DNA of 64,000 nucleotides from Patescibacteria group bacterium (GTDB lineage Bacteria; Patescibacteriota; Minisyncoccia; Phycocordibacterales; PALSA-1337), in contig JAZKBV010000003.1 in the NCBI GenBank assembly GCA_040388415.1, positions 47,571-111,570 on the forward strand. The letters are read 5' to 3'. Shown piece by piece: positions 3,698 through 62,777 of this stretch. The position numbers were made by a program, and so were the translations under genes. Under the pieces are notes generated by a model, which searched no databases, had not been told where the DNA came from, and saw nothing but the letters and a program-made list of their open reading frames with translations. How positions within the stretch are numbered: position 1 is the stretch's first letter; each line of letters starts with the position of its first letter.

Positions 3698-5125
3698 ATG
3701 AACCTCGGAAAGAAAACAAAGATCGTATGTACTATCGGCCCTGCTACAGAGACAGTCGAAAAGCTCGAAGCACTCGTCACTGCCGGCATGAACGTTATGC
3801 GCCTCAACTTCTCGCACGGAGATTTTGCTGAGCACCAAGGCCGCGTCGACAACCTTCGCACCGTCATGAAGAAGCTCGACAAGCCTGTCGCTATCCTCCA
3901 AGACCTCGGTGGCCCAAAGATCCGTATCGGCATGTTCAGCGATGAAAAGGGTATTGTGCTCAAGGCTGGCCAGACATTTACTCTCACCACAAACGAATCA
4001 GAAAAGCTCACCGGTGATGAACATCGCGTCTATATCAACTACCCAAAGCTTCCAAGTGAAGTGAAGGTTGGTGGTACGATCATGGTCCATGACGGCAAGA
4101 AACGTCTCCAGATCACCAAGATCAAAGGCAATGACATCATCTGTAAAGTCATCGTCGGTGGTCCTCTCGGCAACAAGAAGGGTGTCAACCTCCCAGACGC
4201 TGAGCTCACTATCCACGCTCTCACTGCAAAGGATCGCAAGGACCTTGAGTTCGGTCTCAAGAACAAGGTTGATTTCTTCGCACTTTCATTTGTCCGCCGT
4301 CCAGAAGATATCCATGAGCTCCGCGCTATCTTGAAGAAGGCAAAGTCAGACGCACGCATCATTGCAAAGATCGAGACTCCTCAGGCTCTCGATTGTCTCG
4401 ACGCTATCGTTGAAGCGGCTGACGGTATCATGGTTGCTCGTGGTGACCTCGCTATCGAGATCCCTGCAGAAGAAGTTCCTATCGCTCAAAAGCGCATGAT
4501 CGATGCCTGTATCGAAGCTGGCAAGCCAGTCATCGTTGCTACACAAATGCTCGAGTCTATGATCAAGAGTCCGATCCCAACACGCGCTGAAGTTTCAGAT
4601 GTCGCCAACGCTATCAAGGATGGCACAGATGCTATCATGCTTTCAGAGGAAACAACTCTCGGTGAGTACCCAGTTGAGGCAGTCCAGATGATGACCAAGA
4701 TCGCTCTCCGCGTCGAGCAAGATGCATGTTCATGTGAATCAATGGTTGATCATGTCGAAGCACACGGTGATACTGATGTCATCTCACAGGCTGCTGTTCG
4801 CATCGCCCATGACAGCAACGCATCATTCATCGTCGCTATGACTCGTTCAGGACGCACTGCGCGCATGATTGCTCGTTACCGCCCTGCAGAGCACACCCTC
4901 GTTATGTCAGATTCTCCAAAGCATTTGAACAAGCTCGCGCTATCATTCGGCTGTCAGCCAATCGAGACTGCTACATTCAAGACAGTAGAGGAGGCTATGG
5001 TCGTCGTTCGTGAAGTGGCTTTCAAGAACAAGCTCGCAAAGAAGGGGGAGAAAGTGGTCATCGTCTGGGGCTTCCCATTCGGCGGATCAAAGGATACCAA
5101 CCTTATCTTGGTTGAGACGCTTTAG
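3698..5125 (+). CDS. pyk: Pyruvate kinase
   Basis: KIVCTIGPAT, MNVMRLNFSHG, GDLAIEIP, MLESM motifs; 475 aa with C-terminal regulatory domain. Confidence 0.95.
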   Translation: MNLGKKTKIVCTIGPATETVEKLEALVTAGMNVMRLNFSHGDFAEHQGRVDNLRTVMKKLDKPVAILQDLGGPKIRIGMFSDEKGIVLKAGQTFTLTTNESEKLTGDEHRVYINYPKLPSEVKVGGTIMVHDGKKRLQITKIKGNDIICKVIVGGPLGNKKGVNLPDAELTIHALTAKDRKDLEFGLKNKVDFFALSFVRRPEDIHELRAILKKAKSDARIIAKIETPQALDCLDAIVEAADGIMVARGDLAIEIPAEEVPIAQKRMIDACIEAGKPVIVATQMLESMIKSPIPTRAEVSDVANAIKDGTDAIMLSEETTLGEYPVEAVQMMTKIALRVEQDACSCESMVDHVEAHGDTDVISQAAVRIAHDSNASFIVAMTRSGRTARMIARYRPAEHTLVMSDSPKHLNKLALSFGCQPIETATFKTVEEAMVVVREVAFKNKLAKKGEKVVIVWGFPFGGSKDTNLILVETL

Positions 5126-5137
5126 TACAGGAAGATA

Positions 5138-5164
5138 GGAGTAAGGAGAAGGGAGTAAGGAGAA
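5138..5164. repeat. Tandem 13-nt direct repeat ggagtaaggagaa x2 (two Shine-Dalgarno-like TAAGGAG motifs) in pyk 3' region
   Basis: Exact repeat separated by 1 nt; followed at ~5186-5212 by GC hairpin plus T-run (terminator-like). Confidence 0.5.
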
Positions 5165-5248
5165 TCGCAAAAACAGAAGGCGCCGGCGAAAGTCGGTGCT
5201 TTTTATTCACAATTGCCAAAACAAAATATTTGGTGCTAAAATATCCCC

Positions 5249-5989
5249 ATGCAGAACAGCCAATACATCATCCGCGACATACCGCTGGTTCTCGACCGGT
5301 CTCCTTTCGATGACGAGTATCCGCTCCTCATCAGGGATCTGCCTCCGGAAGGGAAACCGCGCGAAAAGCTCATGGCACATGGCCCGGAGGCTTTGACGGT
5401 GTCTGAGTTGGCCGCTCTGCTCATCGTGACCGGCACGACCAAAGAAGACGTGCTGGGCATGACCAACCGCATCATCAGAGATTATGGAGAGCGCAATATC
5501 TTTGCTGAGCACGATCCCACTAAGCTTTCGAAGGATCTCGATATACCGATCGTCAAAGCGTGCACCATCGTGGCTGCGGGAGAGCTCGGTCGTCGATTCT
5601 ACGCTCGGAACCAGAGCGGCTTCACGACGATCAGAAATGCTCACGACGTCTTCGACTACCTCGGAGAACTCCGCTCATTGCCGAAAGAACAGATGCGCGG
5701 TCTGTATCTCAATAGTCACAGTCGCATCATTCGCGACGAAGTCATATCTGTCGGTACGGTCGGGTCCAACTTCGCTCATCCACGCGAAGTGTTCCGTCCT
5801 GCTCTAGAATCGTCCGCTGTCGCCGTCATCCTCGCACACAACCATCCATCGGGAGAAGCTACGCCGAGCCCTGAAGACATCGAGATCACCAAACGACTCA
5901 TCCAGGCAGGCAAGCTCATGGGTATACGCCTCATTGATCACGTCATCATCACCAAAGACGGCTTTACGAGCGTCAAAGCCGATTACTAA
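5249..5989 (+). CDS. radC: RadC-family JAMM/MPN+ domain protein (UPF0758)
   Basis: ILAHNHPSGEATPSPEDIEITKRL JAMM motif, N-terminal HhH-like region. Confidence 0.85.
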   Translation: MQNSQYIIRDIPLVLDRSPFDDEYPLLIRDLPPEGKPREKLMAHGPEALTVSELAALLIVTGTTKEDVLGMTNRIIRDYGERNIFAEHDPTKLSKDLDIPIVKACTIVAAGELGRRFYARNQSGFTTIRNAHDVFDYLGELRSLPKEQMRGLYLNSHSRIIRDEVISVGTVGSNFAHPREVFRPALESSAVAVILAHNHPSGEATPSPEDIEITKRLIQAGKLMGIRLIDHVIITKDGFTSVKADY

Positions 5990-5993
5990 CAAC

Positions 5994-6308
5994 ATGTATA
6001 GAGATTACACCCTTACCTCACCATCGCTTGATGGTATTTTGCGTCACGACAGTATCACGTATGAAGGCCTCGAGCGCCCAGTAGATATTTTACGAGCTTT
6101 TGACAGGCCGAGCGACCAGATTCGCGATTTAGACAGGCCTGAGAACAGAAAAATACTCAATGATTACTATAATGACCTCTACGGACTCTTTATGAGGAAA
6201 ATGGGGCAGTTTATCGCTGAAAAGGCGGTTTCCCCTGAAGAAGAGCTCAAATTACAGGCTATTTTGCAGGAACTCATCAAAGTCAAAAAAGCATTGACTT
6301 TAGAGTAG
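5994..6308 (+). CDS. Hypothetical small protein (104 aa)
   Basis: ORF immediately after radC stop; ATG at 5994 chosen because upstream part of track ORF overlaps radC. Confidence 0.4.
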   Translation: MYRDYTLTSPSLDGILRHDSITYEGLERPVDILRAFDRPSDQIRDLDRPENRKILNDYYNDLYGLFMRKMGQFIAEKAVSPEEELKLQAILQELIKVKKALTLE

Positions 6309-6312
6309 TTTA

Positions 6313-6323
6313 TGTGGTATAAT
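6313..6323 (+). promoter_or_regulatory. Extended -10 promoter element TGtGGTATAAT
   Basis: Located ~70 nt upstream of 6391 start. Confidence 0.4.
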
Positions 6324-6390
6324 ACCACCAGCTGAAAGTTCTTTTAAAACGTGAGAACGGACGGCTAGAAAACATCAATCCGGAGCATAC

Positions 6391-7785
6391 ATGCTCCATA
6401 CTGAAAGGCTCGTTGTGAATAAAAAACTAGAAGAAGCAGTCAAGTTCCTTGCGCAATTCAACCAAGTGGTAATGCATAAATCCCCGCACTTGGATGAAAT
6501 CGTGGCATATTATCTCCTCAAGGTATACGGCATGCTCAAGGCGAGTGTTCGCTTTGTTGATGCTGACATTACCGGGACAGAAGCTGATCATGATCGTAAT
6601 TGTGTCCTACCAATCGGTTGTGGTGACAATTGTCGCTTCAATGAGCATCGCAAAGGTATCGAGCGACTCAAGGGTGAATGCGCAACGACTCTCGCTGCAA
6701 AATTCCTTGGGATTAACGAACTACCGGAAGTAAAACGCCTCATCGCTGAAGTCCTTAAGTGCGACACCGAAGCAGGTTGCATGCCGACGCAGTTGGCTGA
6801 GTTGGTCAAGGTTGCCAATCGTTCTATGCCGGGAAATTATCTTGGCGTTCTGACATGGGTGACGACTGCTCTCAAGGCAATCATTCACAATGAGCAATAT
6901 CACTTCACGGCTCTTCCCGGCGAGAAATCTCTGGTGGATCTTTTGAAGGCGATGGATGCTGAAGGTAAATACTTCAGCGAGGATTCACGGATCCGTGAGC
7001 ACCTCTTCCGGATATCGCATGACAGTTTGCGCCGTTCGGACAAATGCATAACGGAACTCGCGTCAATATTGCAGGCCATGCATCGTTTGCCCTACAAGGC
7101 AGAGGATATCAGCACTTGGCTCGAGACTCCGCTCTTGCAGATTACTTCAGACCAGCTCCAGTTTTGGCAGCTGGTTGACCTGTATAAAAAGCAGGAAATC
7201 ATTCCGGTGCGCGCGATGGATAACCGTGGCGAATACGAGCTCAAGCTCATGGTCATCGAAAGCGATGATCTGCAAGCGCCTCGTGCAGCTCGGTTTACTG
7301 GTGCAGATATCGTTCTTTGCCGCACTTCGAAGGGTAACGTGATGATCTCTGTTGACACGCGAATCCCCGACCTCAATCTCTCCAACGTGGTCCGCATGAT
7401 ACGTTGGATGGATTTACCTAAGAAGATCACGAATGAGCCGAGTTGGCTTGACTTAGGTGTTCCTGGTGCGCACGACTTGCATTGTTTGGCGCATTGGTAT
7501 TACTTCAAGAAGGGAGAGCAGATCTTCAACGGAAGCCAGACACATTCTGCTCCGCCGACCAAGATACCTACGGAGGCGCTGGTGGAGGCCATCAAGTATG
7601 GTTTGCATCCGCACTATGTCAAAATGTGGTGCAATGATCGGCGCATCGTCATGAACCCGAAACGCTTGGCTGAGGCGATGCAACACAGAAAGCAATCATC
7701 GGAGAAGCCGGCCGGCGACATGGGATTGAAGATTGATCTTCAGCCGAAAAATCGGGCGGCGACTAATGTCGTTGCTGTAGCGTAA
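6391..7785 (+). CDS. Hypothetical protein; N-terminal HxxxHxDE motif reminiscent of MYG1/UPF0160 metal-dependent hydrolases
   Basis: 464 aa; MHKSPHLDEIVAYYLL near N-terminus; no other recognisable motif. Confidence 0.3.
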   Translation: MLHTERLVVNKKLEEAVKFLAQFNQVVMHKSPHLDEIVAYYLLKVYGMLKASVRFVDADITGTEADHDRNCVLPIGCGDNCRFNEHRKGIERLKGECATTLAAKFLGINELPEVKRLIAEVLKCDTEAGCMPTQLAELVKVANRSMPGNYLGVLTWVTTALKAIIHNEQYHFTALPGEKSLVDLLKAMDAEGKYFSEDSRIREHLFRISHDSLRRSDKCITELASILQAMHRLPYKAEDISTWLETPLLQITSDQLQFWQLVDLYKKQEIIPVRAMDNRGEYELKLMVIESDDLQAPRAARFTGADIVLCRTSKGNVMISVDTRIPDLNLSNVVRMIRWMDLPKKITNEPSWLDLGVPGAHDLHCLAHWYYFKKGEQIFNGSQTHSAPPTKIPTEALVEAIKYGLHPHYVKMWCNDRRIVMNPKRLAEAMQHRKQSSEKPAGDMGLKIDLQPKNRAATNVVAVA

Positions 7786-13684: not shown

Positions 13685-14464
13685 TTAGGAGAAGATGTGC
13701 AGGCGTCGAAGCGAGGTGAGTGATTTTTGTGCACGGGCATATATACGGTTCATTGGGCCCGTAGTGCCACCTTCGGTCCAAACTTGTTCAGTGATCGGTT
13801 TTTCTGGATTAAGTATCTCGACGACGCCTTGCTTGATGCCGCTTCCGTATATGCCATCTTCAGGATACGCGACTGCATGCGCATAGTGTATTTTTGCTGG
13901 AGTGAAGTTTTGATATTCAATCTGATATATGACAAGCACATGATCGCGATCTGTGCCATCAGGTCCGCCGATCATAGTAATGATATCTCCAGGTTGAGCT
14001 TCTTTGATCTCGATTGTTCTACTGTTTTTCTCATGAGCAAATGTTGCGACGTCACAATTCTCGATAGGGCGGAGAGCGCAGCGTACTTTACCGATCAATC
14101 CGGTGCAGTTAATGAAATGTATATGTTTGTCGAGCGATCCTTTTTTTAATTCTTGGGATTCAGTATTCAATACATAGTAAGCAAATGCTGAACAGTCGAT
14201 ACCTATGTTGTTATCAGTGAGTGTTTTTTTGAGGAGCTCATTTGTGACTGCCGACTGATCAGCATGATCTTTGAGCATGATGCTCTTTATCTCCTCGAAT
14301 ATTTCTTGCGGGCTACCTTTGCCTATAGTGCTTCGGAGGGCGGCGCGTGCTCGCGTCGTCTTGTTGTTGAAATAAGGTATAGAGCAAACCGCTCCGCCAA
14401 TAGTAAAATGGAGATATTGGTCGATGACAGATAAGGCTCGGTTTGAGAGTGTCTTGGTATTCAT
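13685..14464 (-). CDS. Putative papain-fold cysteine hydrolase (NlpC/P60-CHAP-like)
   Basis: GIDCSAFAYYVL (Cys motif) and GDIITMIGG...DHVLVIY (His motif) in correct order; 259 aa. Confidence 0.35.
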   Translation of the reverse strand: MNTKTLSNRALSVIDQYLHFTIGGAVCSIPYFNNKTTRARAALRSTIGKGSPQEIFEEIKSIMLKDHADQSAVTNELLKKTLTDNNIGIDCSAFAYYVLNTESQELKKGSLDKHIHFINCTGLIGKVRCALRPIENCDVATFAHEKNSRTIEIKEAQPGDIITMIGGPDGTDRDHVLVIYQIEYQNFTPAKIHYAHAVAYPEDGIYGSGIKQGVVEILNPEKPITEQVWTEGGTTGPMNRIYARAQKSLTSLRRLHIFS

Positions 14465-43028: not shown

Positions 43029-45236
43029 ATGCCACTCAAATCCCTTACTCGATTCCTTACGCTTGCACCGCTATTCCTTATACCGTTCTTTCCTTTGATC
43101 GTTGAGAATTCATTCTTCTTTCCATTCATTACCGGCAAAGCTTTCTATTTCCGTATTCTCGTTGAGATCGCTTTTGCTAGTTGGATTATCCTCGCATGTC
43201 TCGACGCAAAGTATCGTCCAAAGATAAACGCACTCACACTCGGCGTCACTGCATTCGCGCTCATCACGCTCGCCGCTGACCTTCTCGGCGTGAACCCGCT
43301 CCGCAGTCTCTGGTCAAACTTTGAGCGTATGGAAGGTTGGATCGTTATCGCGCATCTCTGGATGTTCTTCATGGTCATAACTCATGTATTTGGCGCAGGG
43401 GAGATAGGCAAGAAACTGTGGCGTCAATGGTTGAATGTTTCCCTCGTCGCGTCGCTCTTGGTTGCCTGCTATGGTTTCGCGCAGCTATTTGGTTGGGCTG
43501 AGATCCATCAAGGATCGGTTCGTATCGATGCGTCTCTCGGCAATGCAGCATACATGGCCGTGTATATGCTCATCAGCACTGGATTTGCCGTATTCCTCTT
43601 TTTGGAATCACGAGCGCGCCGCACAGTAAAAAACATCTTTGACCTCAGCGTATTCGAGTGGCTCTACGCTATCGGCGCTCTTGTCTTCGCTTTCTTGCTT
43701 TTTGAAACAGCGACTCGCGGTACTGCATTTGGCTTGATTGGTGGCGCCATGCTCGCCCTCTTCTTGTATGCTCTCCTCGCTGGTCCAACAAAGAAAGCTT
43801 CTCGCATGGTCGCTGGCGGCATCATCGTCGTCATCATGCTTATCGGCGGCGCACTATGGTCAGCGCGCGATACGTCTTTCGTAAAGAATAATCAAGCGCT
43901 CAACCGTCTCACATCCATCACTCTTTCTGAGATACAGACACAAGGCCGCGCCTATATCTGGCCTATGGCAGTAAAAGGATCGCTTGAGCGCCCTGTTCTC
44001 GGTTGGGGCCAGGAAAATTTCAATTATATCTTCAACGCCAACTATAACCCTGCCATGTATAACCAAGAGCAGTGGTTCGATCGCGCGCACAGCGTCTATC
44101 TCGACTGGTTGGTTGCATCTGGCTTCGTAGGTTTGTTGGCATATCTGGCATTATATGTATTCTTCTTGCTCGCTGTATGGAGATCGACTCTCACCATCGC
44201 CGAAAAGAGCGCATTGACTGGCCTTCTTGTTGGTTATGCGATCCACAACGTCTTTGTGTTCGATAACCTTGCGAGCTATGTATCATTTTTCGCCCTTCTC
44301 GGTCTCGGCGCTTCATTGAAGTCAGCAAAGGCACAAGATGTTCCAAAGCCAGTGCGCGAGATAAGTCCTGATATCATCGAATACGTCATTGCACCGCTCT
44401 CGATCATCATTCTTTTGGGCGGGCTCTATATGTTTAATGTTCGTCCGATCCAGGAAAATACTCGTCTGATCGATGCGCTTCGTGCATGTAGTGGTAGCAG
44501 CATGCCTGATGCCACGCTCTTCCAGCGCGCCCTAGATGCAGGGTCATATATGGGCATGCAGGAGATTCGTGAGCAGATATTCTCATGTACGCCAAATGTC
44601 ATTAACTCTCAACAGATACCTGGTCCCACAAAGCAGGCGTTCGGCGAGCTTGCAATGACTGCGATTACGGATCAGATCGCCGCTTCTCCAAAGGATGCTC
44701 GTATATATACTCTCGCTGGTTCATTCCTCGAGCAAGTCGGCTCATTCCAACAAGCTGTTCCATTCCTTGAAACAGCGCACAAGCTTTCTCCTGCAAAGCA
44801 GACCATCGCATTTGCGCTTTCAACGGCATACATCAATATCGGCAAATATGATCAGGCTATCGCATTGCTCAAGCAAGCATATGAATCGGCGACAGAAAAT
44901 GCGGATGCAAAGTCAGCCTATCTCACCGCGCTTATCATCGGAGGACAGGAGTCGCAAGCGAAAGCGCTTTTCGGCAGCATGCCTGAGCTCTTCAATAATG
45001 AACGCGTTGCGCAGGCATACGCATTGAATAAGCAGTACGATAAAGCCATTGCCATTTACAAAAATATCATCGGTACAAGCACTGATCAAGTCAGTACCCA
45101 GTTCAGACTTGCGGAAATACTCTTTAGCGCAGGACGATCATATGAATCAGTCGCGCTTCTGAAAGCGATCGAAACTGCTCATCCAGAGTACAAGGCTCAG
45201 CTCGAAGCTGCTATAAAGCAGATTCAATCAAAATAG
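43029..45236 (+). CDS. O-antigen ligase/polymerase-like (Wzy_C domain) membrane protein with C-terminal TPR repeats
   Basis: Multi-TM N-domain with RAHSVYLDWLVASGFVGLL (Wzy_C-like), periplasmic loop, ~250-aa C-terminal TPR-like region. Confidence 0.6.
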   Translation: MPLKSLTRFLTLAPLFLIPFFPLIVENSFFFPFITGKAFYFRILVEIAFASWIILACLDAKYRPKINALTLGVTAFALITLAADLLGVNPLRSLWSNFERMEGWIVIAHLWMFFMVITHVFGAGEIGKKLWRQWLNVSLVASLLVACYGFAQLFGWAEIHQGSVRIDASLGNAAYMAVYMLISTGFAVFLFLESRARRTVKNIFDLSVFEWLYAIGALVFAFLLFETATRGTAFGLIGGAMLALFLYALLAGPTKKASRMVAGGIIVVIMLIGGALWSARDTSFVKNNQALNRLTSITLSEIQTQGRAYIWPMAVKGSLERPVLGWGQENFNYIFNANYNPAMYNQEQWFDRAHSVYLDWLVASGFVGLLAYLALYVFFLLAVWRSTLTIAEKSALTGLLVGYAIHNVFVFDNLASYVSFFALLGLGASLKSAKAQDVPKPVREISPDIIEYVIAPLSIIILLGGLYMFNVRPIQENTRLIDALRACSGSSMPDATLFQRALDAGSYMGMQEIREQIFSCTPNVINSQQIPGPTKQAFGELAMTAITDQIAASPKDARIYTLAGSFLEQVGSFQQAVPFLETAHKLSPAKQTIAFALSTAYINIGKYDQAIALLKQAYESATENADAKSAYLTALIIGGQESQAKALFGSMPELFNNERVAQAYALNKQYDKAIAIYKNIIGTSTDQVSTQFRLAEILFSAGRSYESVALLKAIETAHPEYKAQLEAAIKQIQSK

Positions 45237-45247
45237 CGTCGACGCTA

Positions 45248-45275
45248 TTGCAGCTGCAAGATACTATAGTATAAT
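45248..45275 (+). promoter_or_regulatory. Strong sigma70-like promoter TTGCAG-16-TATAAT in non-coding region
   Basis: Overlaps perfect palindrome TTGCAGCTGCAA; adjacent upstream palindrome GCGTCGACGC. Confidence 0.45.
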
Positions 45276-45281
45276 TGGTCT

Positions 45282-45346
45282 GTGAGTACCCTAGGTGGGC
45301 ACTCTCCAATAAATGTCTCGCAAAGTGCCGCCCTCGGCGGCCTTTT
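45282..45346 (+). ncRNA. Candidate small non-coding RNA (~65 nt) bounded by promoter and intrinsic terminator
   Basis: 5' hairpin GAGUACCC/GGGCACUC, then terminator gccgcc-ctc-ggcggc-cuuuu; no ORF. Confidence 0.3.
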
Positions 45347-45502
45347 GCGTTAAGAGATAATTTCTTGGTATACTTGAGTGCAGATTGCACCAAATGACGG
45401 CGAGCGGCTGTACTCACATTATATTTAGACATATTATTTGGAGCTCACACCCGCTCGCCATCATTGGGTACAATTACCACGTTCGTGGATATACCTTAGA
45501 TT

Positions 45503-46597
45503 ATGATTATTCAAGAAAATATATCTCTAGCTCAATATACGACATTCAAGATCGGCGGTTCAGCTCGATTTTTTTGTTTAGTGACGGGCATAGATGAATT
45601 AAAGGAAGCAGTCAAGTTCGCAAAAGAAAAAAACGTACCTTTCTTTGTCCTTGGTGGAGGGTCAAATGTGCTCATCTCAGATGAAGGATTCCATGGCCTG
45701 GTCATAAAGATGGAGATAAAGGGGAAAGTTAAAAGGCAAAAGTTAAAAGGCAAAAATGAAAGTCAAAAGAGTGAAAATATAGAACTTGAGATTGTTTCTG
45801 CTGGCGCAGGAGAAATGTGGGATGATTTTGTCGAATGGACACTTGCTAACGGTTTCAATGGATTGGAAAATCTTTCAGCTATTCCTGGCACTGTCGGCGC
45901 TGCGCCTGTGCAGAATATCGGCGCGTATGGAGCAGAGATCGGACAGTTTGTTTCGAGTGTTCATGCATTTGATACTCATACGATGAAAGAGATTGAATTG
46001 AATGCTCGTGACTGTCATTTCGGTTACAGAAACAGCTTGTTCAAACACGAAAAGGGAAGATATATTGTCACTTGCGTTGATTTTTCTTTGAAGAAAGATG
46101 GGAAGGTGAATGTTGAGTACAGGGATTTGAAGGAGTATTTTAATAAGTTACAAGTGACAAGTGGACCCAGTGGCGAATCTGCTGATTCGAAGGTACAAGA
46201 AATCACACCATCGCAGGTTCGTGAGGCAGTGATTGATATTCGTTGGCATAAATTGCCTGATTGGAATAAGTGGGGCACTGCAGGATCGTTTTTCAAAAAC
46301 CCTGTGGTCACACAAGAAAAGTTTGATGAGTTGAAAGTTAAGTACCCAGCGATGCCGAGCTTCCCCGAGGCTAGTGGCGGCGTCAAAATACCGCTTGGTT
46401 GGATACTCGATAATGTGTGTCATCTCAAAGGCGTTATGACTGGCGGTGTAGGCACCTATGAAAAGCAGGCACTGGTCATCGTCACCAAGCCAGGAGCTAA
46501 AGCAAAAGAGGTAGTCGATTTTACGCATGATTTGATGAAGCAAGTGAAGGACGCGACCGGGATTACGATCGAAGCTGAGGTGGAATGGGTGAATTAG
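45503..46597 (+). CDS. murB: UDP-N-acetylenolpyruvoylglucosamine reductase
   Basis: FAD-binding FKIGGSARFF, VLGGGSNVL; C-terminal MurB domain; contains short Lys-rich tandem-repeat insertion. Confidence 0.9.
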   Translation: MIIQENISLAQYTTFKIGGSARFFCLVTGIDELKEAVKFAKEKNVPFFVLGGGSNVLISDEGFHGLVIKMEIKGKVKRQKLKGKNESQKSENIELEIVSAGAGEMWDDFVEWTLANGFNGLENLSAIPGTVGAAPVQNIGAYGAEIGQFVSSVHAFDTHTMKEIELNARDCHFGYRNSLFKHEKGRYIVTCVDFSLKKDGKVNVEYRDLKEYFNKLQVTSGPSGESADSKVQEITPSQVREAVIDIRWHKLPDWNKWGTAGSFFKNPVVTQEKFDELKVKYPAMPSFPEASGGVKIPLGWILDNVCHLKGVMTGGVGTYEKQALVIVTKPGAKAKEVVDFTHDLMKQVKDATGITIEAEVEWVN

Positions 46598-46762: not shown

Positions 46763-47557
46763 ATGAAAAATGCAACGCAGGTCCGTAAATTACTGGTTGG
46801 CGACTTGATGCCAAAAGCGGTCACTGATGCAGAGAAGGAAATTCTTGCAACAGTGTTTGATCGTCTCATTGAAGCGCCCGATTGGGCAATTGTCCCGCAG
46901 ATAGTTGTCGAATTGGTTGATTCGACCGCTGATTCAGACTTGTCTGGGTCAATACCGACACGACGGTTGAAAAGCGGGGAATCGATAGAAAATATCTTGG
47001 AGGCACTGATCAATGCGTTTCCAGGACAAGCAGGAAACATGCCCGAAATCGTCCATTTGGCGATGAAAAATATTAACCAGGACAAAAATTTCAAGGATGA
47101 TCTTGGTCAGCATGCAGTCTTAATGACTTTTCTCTTCGAGCTTGCGGATTTTAATGTATTCAAGTTCGATAAGGTGACATTCGATAAACATCTCATTGAG
47201 TTTTTGGGAGAGGGGTTTACGAAGTGCTATTTTAGGAGGTCGCTGATATACAACAATCAGTCGGGTAAACTTTCGAATCATATTGCGAAATTCATCACGA
47301 ACGCTCAGATTTCGCTTAAGACAGACAAAGTAAGTAATCGTTGGGATTCTTTGTTGGGGTTACTGACTATTGCTAGACAGGCATTTCCTGACCACGCTCC
47401 AATGGGTGATGCGTCACTGGAGTATGCACTACTCAACGACTTGTGTTTCAAGATGTTTGGCACGCTATCGCCCATCAAGAAGCTTGATGTTGTTAATGGT
47501 TACTTTAATGCAACCAGTGCGCCAGTTGCTCCCTCGAATGAGCTTGTGACAAAATAA
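46763..47557 (+). CDS. Hypothetical protein (264 aa)
   Basis: Clean ORF, no recognisable motif. Confidence 0.45.
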
Positions 47558-62255: not shown

Positions 62256-62777
62256 ATGCCCACTAACACAGAGTTGCTTACAGCTGTGAATAATCTCACT
62301 AAAATCGAACCGGCAAAAGACCTTATTTTGCCCAATCAAAGGACGAAGGGTTGGATTGAGTATATGCATTTAGTGCTCTTCGTTCATCCGGTTGATGGTG
62401 TGTTACGGATTTGGACCGGACACATTACAAGTTTGCCTGGCAGCCACGGTGACGGTTTTGAGATCGACAACGTCGTCAAGACAGTCGTCTGGACTGACCT
62501 ACCGCTCCGGAATTGTGATCGTCTGAATGATTGTCATGAGAAGACATTCAAAGTGAACAACCCGCTTCTTATCCGTCGCGATGAAGTTCACTTTTTCAAG
62601 GATGAAAATCTGGCTCTCAAATGGTTCCATGGAGTCTTGTCACCGGAGGAGATTGGTCTGGTCGTCAAACTTCTTTCAATGGAAGATTTTGGTCTGTCAT
62701 TTCAGGCGCCTGAAATGAAAGGCAGCACTCGGCGATTCGAAGAGGTTCCCAGTGCACAATCCAGCTGGTGGAAATAA
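62256..62777 (+). CDS. Hypothetical protein (173 aa)
   Basis: Own promoter/terminator; no motif. Confidence 0.5.
   Translation: MPTNTELLTAVNNLTKIEPAKDLILPNQRTKGWIEYMHLVLFVHPVDGVLRIWTGHITSLPGSHGDGFEIDNVVKTVVWTDLPLRNCDRLNDCHEKTFKVNNPLLIRRDEVHFFKDENLALKWFHGVLSPEEIGLVVKLLSMEDFGLSFQAPEMKGSTRRFEEVPSAQSSWWK

Follow-up and report, generated by a model that had tools for sequence, protein, structure and literature searches.

A predicted small RNA gene and a predicted murB leader hairpin with conserved complementarity to each other in a Patescibacteria group bacterium

Results

Two RNA elements are predicted upstream of murB

The DNA analyzed here (hereafter the window) is a stretch of 64,000 nucleotides (nt) of contig JAZKBV010000003.1 from a Patescibacteria group bacterium. 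Judged by its MurB relatives, the organism belongs to the Paceibacterota (Parcubacteria) group of the Candidate Phyla Radiation. Two genes of the plus strand of the window, encoding an O-antigen-ligase-like membrane protein and the UDP-N-acetylmuramate dehydrogenase MurB, are separated by a spacer of 266 nt (45237-45502). This spacer contains a small-RNA region, termed E1, and a long hairpin before murB, termed E2. The conserved complementarity between E1 and E2 points to a putative, so far undescribed RNA-based control of cell-wall synthesis. The features of the locus are listed below in coordinates of the window.

43029-45236, plus strand: membrane protein of 735 amino acids (aa) with Wzy_C (O-antigen-ligase-like) and TPR domains, upstream of the spacer
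45248-45275, plus strand: E1 promoter, with -35 TTGCAG (45248-45253), a 16-nt spacer and -10 TATAAT (45270-45275)
45282-45350, plus strand: E1, predicted small RNA (sRNA) of ~68 nt with its own promoter and intrinsic terminator; predicted start GTGAGTACCC at 45282
45282-45289, plus strand: E1 seed A, GUGAGUAC, located at the predicted 5' end; its complement lies at 45410-45417 in E2
45284-45304, plus strand: E1 hairpin P1, GAGUACCC / GGGCACUC, with arms kept and loop variable
45304-45318, plus strand: E1 seed B, CUCCAAUAAAUGUCU, predicted single-stranded, complementary to 45427-45443
45319-45351, plus strand: E1 intrinsic terminator, CGCAAAGUGCCGCC-CUC-GGCGGCCUUUUGCG followed by UU, from sequence, fold and covariation
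45345-45374, plus strand: E2/murB promoter, with a -35-like TTGCGT (45345-45350), 18 nt and -10 TATACT (45369-45374)
45384-45474, plus strand: E2, predicted leader hairpin of the murB mRNA, with a 28-bp stem containing conserved mismatches and a 35-nt loop (45412-45446)
45410-45417, plus strand: E2 site A', GUACUCAC, invariant in 41 of 41 loci
45427-45443, plus strand: E2 site B', AGACAUAUUAUUUGGAG, including a GGAG that resembles a Shine-Dalgarno (SD) motif
45503-46597, plus strand: murB (Pfam FAD_binding_4 and MurB_C), 3' of E2

E1 is a predicted independent small RNA gene

A first-pass annotation of this stretch, made from its letters, had proposed a promoter TTGCAG-16-TATAAT followed by an RNA of ~65 nt, bounded by a terminator and devoid of an open reading frame (ORF). 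Comparison with relatives upholds both proposals. The promoter hexamers hold their position while the sequence between and around them differs: over 23 distinct sequences, the pattern is TTGnnn, 16-17 nt, (TG)nTAnnnT and 6-7 nt (10 in locus L027) to GTGAGTAC, the -10 often being TGn-extended. The predicted RNA folds with -29.9 kcal/mol (z = -4.1). The arms of P1 are invariant except for three C-to-U changes that give U-G pairs, and its loop varies in sequence and in length (~4 to 9 nt). As the length steps (1-5 nt) are not multiples of three, no conserved reading frame runs through E1; a 40-aa ORF with a TTG start (45275-45397) begins upstream of the predicted transcription start. The terminator has its core, GCCGCC-CTC-GGCGGC-CTTTTGCGTT, at 45327-45351, and its stem shows compensatory changes at two pairs, C-G to U-A in 7 sequences and G-C to C-G in 3, which result in the variants GCCGCC/GGCGGC, GCUGCC/GGCAGC and CCCGCC/GGCGGG. 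None of 500 shuffles reached the covariation score of this stem. Combined, these properties identify E1 as a predicted independent, non-coding sRNA gene of the plus strand.

E2 is a predicted leader hairpin of murB

The first-pass annotation had missed both the inverted repeat with 28-nt arms that forms E2 and the complementarity of 45304-45318 with 45427-45443. The arms (45384-45411 with 45447-45474) are 86% complementary. Among relatives, eight pairs of the stem have changed on both sides and a one-base indel is paired by another, a covariation score reached by 0 of 500 shuffles; 85% of the stem positions are paired, compared to at most 48% when the partner columns are slid. Some mismatches of the stem are themselves conserved, namely C-C (columns 29/73) and A-C (columns 10/92). 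Inside the loop, RNAalifold pairs CUC.CA with UGGAG to form an apical helix of 5 bp. Fold z-scores are -6.5 on the plus strand and -8.6 on the minus strand, and the predicted minus-strand fold is the more stable one (-50.4 vs -38 kcal/mol).

A TATAAT or TATACT box lies 7-8 nt before the first base of the stem (GATTG) in all 40 loci that are readable upstream, with a TTGnnn hexamer 16-18 nt farther upstream in most of them. From the conserved position of the -10 box, the hairpin is expected to start ~2 nt after the transcription start. In relatives, the base of the stem and the murB ATG are some 0 to 85 nt apart, without a terminator in between, and no more than ~3 nt apart in L003, L017, L024, L025, L029, L030 and L043. 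We considered a separate promoter for a leaderless murB mRNA between E2 and the ATG and rejected it: no consistent -10 was present at the right distance and several loci lack room for one. Reading frames through E2 shift with the one-base indel in each arm, and an ATG or GTG start is not conserved (L024 has none), so E2 is not coding.

A covariance model of E2 scored 81-112 bits with one copy per locus, and no second E2 was found in the window. This single copy, always before murB, led us to discard repetitive extragenic palindromic (REP) or miniature inverted-repeat transposable (MITE) elements as an explanation of E2. Taken with its promoter, E2 is the predicted 5' leader of murB.

Such a leader appears unusual in this genome. 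An SD-like motif at -18 to -4 was found for 3 of 43 long ORFs of the window, and many genes have a TATAAT-like box 6-9 nt before their ATG (for example at 2583, 22184 and 35326 on the plus strand and at 13685, 55133 and 58217 on the minus strand), which suggests that the organism mostly uses mRNAs that are leaderless or have very short leaders. With few SD motifs and -10 boxes so near the ATGs, a long structured murB leader would be exceptional here.

E1 and E2 are conserved together with murB

Conservation of the locus downstream of the ligase gene, a check already proposed with the first-pass annotation, was examined in relatives, where both elements are kept. A first set consisted of four Paceibacterota loci reached through MurB in genomes (MurB identity 55-80%). 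E2 was directly upstream of murB in all four; E1 was in the same place as in the window in the two closest loci and 600-700 nt upstream in the other two. A scan of metagenomes with an exact pattern covering 21 nt of the loop yielded 25 more loci, and murB followed E2 in every case where downstream sequence was present. Peat, lake and groundwater samples are among the sources of these contigs (for instance the Ga0182027, Ga0265327 and Ga0172379 series). Because a scan of this kind forces loop conservation, we fetched 11 further loci solely by MurB homology (54-62% identity). E2 was present in 11 of these 11 loci, at 81-108 bits with the covariance model built from the first set, and so was E1.

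E1 was located within 1 kb of E2, on either strand, in 38 of the 39 loci with enough upstream DNA; the remaining one, L015, is a short contig. The arrangement of the two elements is not fixed. Five loci (L002, L022, L024, L027 and L042) carry E1, together with its promoter, on the strand opposite to that of E2 and murB, and the distance between E1 and E2 reaches ~800 nt, sometimes with another gene in between. Other genes take the place of the Wzy-TPR gene upstream in several loci, and E2 was never found apart from murB in 41 loci despite a different upstream gene in L003, L015, L019, L023, L028 and L043. E2 was not found upstream of a Saccharibacteria murB (L005). The scanned viral contigs contained chance 15-mer matches only and no true E1 or E2; a phage origin was rejected on this basis.

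Nucleotide identities of relatives to the window were as follows.

E1: 94-100%
E2: 90-98%
murB, first 450 nt: 60-74%
end of the upstream gene: 50-70%
spacer between E1 and E2: 34-73%

The putative RNA elements are more conserved than the genes around them, and as judged from these alignments this reflects selection on nucleotide sequence, not on protein. The conservation extends across at least the Paceibacterota/Taylorbacteria-type lineages sampled.

Several relatives carry near-perfect palindromic insertions of 40-150 nt between E1 and E2 (L001 at 3790-3860, L043 at 2300-2375, and L009, L014, L016, L008 and L039); the window has none. Those of L001 and L043 have in common GCAGGGTAG(G/A)CCTGCG...CGCAGG(C/T)CTACCCTGC, and those of L009, L014 and L016 have a common core of ~35 nt within genome-specific inverted repeats of 20-25 nt. 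These insertions could be MITE-like elements, extra hairpin RNAs or terminators. On the other side of murB, secA is found farther downstream, and between them lies a 264-aa ORF on the plus strand (46763-47557) with no Pfam match; L034, L036, L037 and L041 have ORFs of similar size in this position, with no recorded Pfam hit. In L033 (a contig of 876 kb), secA was called as three pieces (4132-6792) with a 210-aa gene of the opposite strand among them. An insertion or an intein-like interruption could explain this, as could a frameshift or a problem of assembly.

Two segments of E1 are complementary to the apical part of E2

E1 GUGAGUAC is complementary to E2 GUACUCAC (helix A), and E1 CUCCAAUAAAUGUCU is complementary to E2 AGACAUAUUAUUUGGAG over 15 bp with two one-base bulges. 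As the apical helix of E2 is formed by CUC.CA and UGGAG, the two seeds of E1 address its two strands. Pairing between the elements was examined in 15 distinct combinations of E1 and E2. Helix A shows 98% pairing, and its E1-side changes are A to G, giving G-U pairs, except in L041 where two pairs are broken. The core CUCCAA:UUGGAG is fully paired and AUGUCU:AGACAU almost fully paired. The core helices stay paired in 14 of the 15 combinations. The outlier is again L041, which has lost the CUCC block (helix B1) along with the two helix-A pairs and has gained a contiguous match of 9-10 bp around AUGUCU.

One pair has changed on both sides, from C-G to U-A, giving AUGUUU:AAACAU in L034, L036, L039, L040 and L043; AAACAU in E2 occurs only where E1 has AUGUUU (5 of 5 loci). 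L041 aside, the other 10 changed cells of the core are all on the E1 side, with A changed to G opposite U or C changed to U opposite G. Each of these transitions retains a wobble pair, a neutral outcome only if exactly these two strands pair as RNA. The inversion of E1 in five loci likewise places the complementarity at the RNA level and not at the DNA level. Cognate duplexes were predicted to be more stable than non-cognate ones (-15.6 vs -14.8 kcal/mol, permutation p = 0.0004, uncorrected for shared ancestry). Opening AUGUCU in E1 would cost 0.02 kcal/mol and opening AGACAU in E2 0.67 kcal/mol, both being unpaired in the predicted ensembles, and AUGUCU:AGACAU is the likely nucleation site in these models.

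No other match to seed B was found in the window. A duplex scan for other E1 targets in the window returned several at -33 to -36 kcal/mol (background mean -18, standard deviation 4.2); these are long alignments with gaps, of the kind that makes up the tail of the background, and were not retained. On the minus strand, 4662-4671 is a perfect 10-nt complement of the 5' end of E1 (GGGTACTCAC), lying opposite an ORF (3698-5125) in antisense orientation; with ~0.1 sites of this kind expected by chance, the match is probably a coincidence. Extension of the pairing, in nested form, into the 3' arm of E2 (GUACCC:GGGUAC) was also dismissed, as GGGUAC is not conserved and reads GGCGC or GGCAC in most relatives.

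Palindromes and repeats at the locus

Two palindromes had been proposed immediately after the ligase gene, and both are there: GCGTCGACGC at 45236-45245, one base to the left of where it had been placed, and TTGCAGCTGCAA at 45248-45259. The former overlaps the G of the TAG stop codon and is the core of a perfect palindrome of 18 nt, AATAGCGTCGACGCTATT (45232-45249). A third perfect palindrome, ATACTATAGTAT (45261-45272), had gone unnoticed. The three stand back to back over 45232-45272, beginning at the upstream gene's stop codon and reaching the -10 of E1. Palindromes of 12 nt are as frequent in the window as in shuffles (16 vs 15.9), those of 18 nt are rarer (0.26 expected), and three within 41 nt are unusual. 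No relative has the stacked palindromes. For this cluster, a strain-specific operator, restriction-type sites and chance are all conceivable. The longest perfect palindrome of the window, TCATTTCAGGCGCCTGAAATGA (22 nt), lies elsewhere, at 62697-62718.

The long-range inverted repeat of the first-pass annotation is real and conserved; within the 64 kb, the 9-mer recurs just once, as GTACTCACA at 45410-45418. Its statistics are weak, with 0.22 matches expected and two or more in 3 of 100 shuffles; what sets the locus above chance is its conservation in relatives, not window statistics.

Known RNA families

The Rfam scan proposed for this locus returned no known RNA family. With Rfam 15, only a tRNA-Ile passed the gathering threshold in the window; in 44800-45900 the best scores were those of miRNA-precursor models (17.5-29 bits against thresholds of 49-100), a generic resemblance to hairpins. 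E2 presumably lacks the GGAA tetraloop region of signal recognition particle RNA and the hallmarks of 6S RNA, transfer-messenger RNA and RNase P RNA. The literature search found no description of this element or of small RNAs in this group.

Discussion

Promoters, a terminator, hairpins and a complementarity with one compensatory pair are conserved at this locus independently of gene orientation. From these we infer synthesis of both RNAs, their pairing in the cell and an effect on murB, with the sign and by the mechanism proposed below. We think it reasonably probable that the locus consists of two plus-strand units, the E1 sRNA and the murB leader, which act together at the RNA level in the post-transcriptional control of murB. 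Pairing would nucleate at the accessible AUGUCU:AGACAU and extend through CUCCAA:UUGGAG; the 5'-terminal GUGAGUAC of E1 would then pair with GUACUCAC, and pairing would open both the 5' hairpin of E1 itself and the small helix atop E2. The sign we prefer is repression, in that E1 would cover the only single-stranded, GGAG-bearing platform of a leader that places the murB start codon at the foot of a very stable hairpin (-38 kcal/mol). Binding of E1 might also create or alter a substrate of RNase III, as in IstR-1/tisB.

A number of observations weigh against this proposal. Both transcripts are predictions made from sequence. A true double change is present at one intermolecular pair only, and one event in a common ancestor may account for all five loci that carry it. 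With too few variable columns in the intermolecular alignment, its shuffle controls were not significant. Both pairing blocks are in the same 5'-to-3' order in E1 and in E2, which would make the full complex pseudoknot-like, and block A alone is energetically unfavourable (-10.4 for the duplex vs +14.9 for opening). The E2 stem (-38 kcal/mol) is too stable for loop binding alone to open it. Conservation also extends to loop segments without a partner in E1 (CUCACA and, less strictly, the A/U linker), so that something besides E1 constrains the E2 loop. Finally, counts of G-U versus A-C cells in the E2 stem (20 G-U on the plus strand, 32 would-be G-U on the minus strand) leave the two strands indistinguishable; the assignment of E2 to the plus strand is based on its promoter, its fixed orientation with murB and its RNA complementarity to E1.

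The stable stem next to the start codon could also be dealt with by cleavage. E1 would then guide or gate the cutting of a hairpin leader that blocks the start codon (RNase III, for instance, could act on the E2 stem or on the E1:E2 duplex), leaving a translatable, nearly leaderless murB mRNA; we hold this to be quite unlikely. Removal of the leader also has a part in an explanation that leaves murB out as a target, in which E1 and E2 form a constitutive, stable and probably protein-bound bipartite non-coding RNA (ncRNA), E2 being merely co-transcribed with murB and cut off, much as E. coli 6S RNA is co-transcribed with ygfA. The loop that is near-invariant even where it does not pair with E1, the conserved C-C and A-C positions of the stem, which resemble protein-binding features, the strong and constitutive look of the promoters, and the oddity of a structured leader among apparently leaderless genes, which fits removal by processing, would all suit such an RNA. 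It agrees poorly with the constant company of E2 and murB, whatever the upstream gene, with an ATG that can be within ~3 nt and is preceded by neither a terminator nor a recognisable processing signal, and with a lineage-restricted distribution and the lack of a match to Rfam housekeeping families. We regard a bipartite ncRNA as unlikely. Were E2 instead a cis-acting leader that binds a protein or a small ligand, in a riboswitch-like or autoregulatory manner, with the complementarity to E1 secondary or a relic of an inverted duplication, one would understand the extreme conservation of its apical region, the conserved small internal helix of CUC.CA with UGGAG and its constant place before one biosynthetic gene. 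E2 is nevertheless a single hairpin with a conserved, A/U-rich loop and a 5-bp apical helix; it has no multi-helix junction and nothing that could serve as an expression platform, neither a terminator nor an SD. Such a leader would also leave unexplained why E1 is equally conserved, lies close by, shows compensatory and wobble changes and has a promoter and a terminator of its own, and we doubt this explanation strongly.

Two further explanations are less probable still. The common motifs could be DNA operators through which one transcription factor acts on both promoters, with GTGAGTAC at +1 of E1 and GTACTCAC at ~+29 of E2. DNA sites are functional in both orientations, so operators would be compatible with the inversion of E1, and a protein evolving along with its sites could account for the switch of both copies from AGACAT to AAACAT. 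On the other side, the spacing of the half-motifs differs between E1 and E2 (the one- or two-base bulges), the E1 copy in several loci departs from the E2 copy by transitions that preserve wobble pairing in RNA and leave the two DNA sites unlike each other, and the flanking stems covary as RNA; we consider operators very improbable. The first-pass annotation had itself envisaged a convergent transcript sharing the terminator, in a likeness to cis-antisense pairs or to loci of the type I toxin-antitoxin kind; in the latter case the toxin would be the 73-aa ORF or a smaller one. In the window, a minus-strand TATAAT does adjoin GTGAGTAC, the terminator stem lies between A- and U-tracts, the minus strand of E2 folds more stably, and the 73-aa minus-strand ORF exists (45211-45432). 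The downstream copy of the repeat turned out to sit at the junction of 5' arm and loop in a murB-oriented hairpin with a plus-strand promoter, which removes the ground for a convergent transcript. The minus-strand ATTATA is lost in L034, L036, L037 and L043, and no minus-strand -35 is conserved. E1 and E2 do not overlap and their relative orientation is not fixed, and several loci have an inverted E1 or other genes between E1 and E2; they are not a cis-antisense pair. Nor is a small ORF conserved on either strand, as a type I system would have it: the 73-aa ORF has no Pfam hit and crosses a spacer that varies from ~20 to >700 nt, and across the hairpin the 1-nt indel of the stem shifts the reading frames, which also lack a conserved start. 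Coding on either strand was rejected on the same grounds of frame-shifting indels, unconserved starts and the absence of a Pfam hit. We give convergent, cis-antisense or toxin-antitoxin arrangements almost no weight. What survives of the likeness to antisense and type I systems is an adjacent sRNA with limited complementarity to a leader, compatible with a mechanism like that of the divergently encoded type I antitoxin in IstR-1/tisB; the toxin and the cis-antisense arrangement do not.

By its layout the locus is closest to IstR-1/tisB (and to OhsC/shoB and Zor/Orz), where an sRNA gene with its own promoter stands beside its target gene and ~20 nt of complementarity address a single-stranded site far upstream in a structured leader rather than the start codon. 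In tisB this site is a ribosome standby site and pairing leads to cleavage by RNase III. Here, in contrast, the target would be an essential enzyme of peptidoglycan synthesis and not a toxic peptide, there is no small ORF, the pairing is in two blocks, and the system belongs to a lineage of the Candidate Phyla Radiation (CPR) and is known from sequence. By pairing geometry it is closest to RNA-OUT/RNA-IN of IS10 or CopA/CopT of plasmid R1, in which one RNA, by way of a loop or its free 5' end, base-pairs with the apical loop of the long, imperfect hairpin formed by the other and pairing spreads by helix opening, up to a four-way junction in CopA/CopT. Seed A at the predicted 5' end of E1 and the targeting of both strands of the E2 apical helix by the two seeds recall these systems; their partners, unlike E1 and E2, come from opposite strands of the same DNA and are fully complementary, whereas E1 and E2 are separate genes with 8 and ~15 nt of complementarity. 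In GlmZ/GlmY-glmS and DsrA/RprA-rpoS, too, an sRNA controls a leader with a hairpin that influences how accessible the start codon is, and glmS acts in the same pathway as murB, from UDP-N-acetylglucosamine to peptidoglycan precursors. Those sRNAs differ in that they pair with the arm of an SD-masking stem and open it, need Hfq and are not encoded beside their target, whereas E1 would pair with the loop in a genome that hardly uses SD motifs. Leaders processed by RNase III (E. coli pnp, rnc and adhE) resemble E2 in having a 5' stem of at least 20 bp with mismatches that sets the stability or the translatability of the mRNA; no trans-acting sRNA partner is known for them, and cutting of E2 by RNase III is our supposition. 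The locus is a member of none of these families. It belongs to the class of neighbour-encoded, base-pairing sRNAs with an mRNA-leader target, and as a pair of RNAs it is apparently undescribed.

CPR bacteria have tiny genomes with few recognisable regulators and are mostly uncultured, and how they regulate their genes is hardly known. If the proposed control is true, E1 and E2 would be a candidate post-transcriptional circuit acting on an essential cell-wall gene in such a bacterium; if the leader is instead removed under the guidance of E1, the pair would constitute an sRNA-licensed switch for peptidoglycan synthesis in an episymbiotic member of the CPR. The two RNAs are short and defined (68 and ~95 nt), come with a natural compensatory variant and can be searched for in metatranscriptomes, and the E1 and E2 covariance models can serve as seeds for annotating these genomes. 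A long murB leader amid genes that look leaderless may also provide an entry point to translation initiation in this group.

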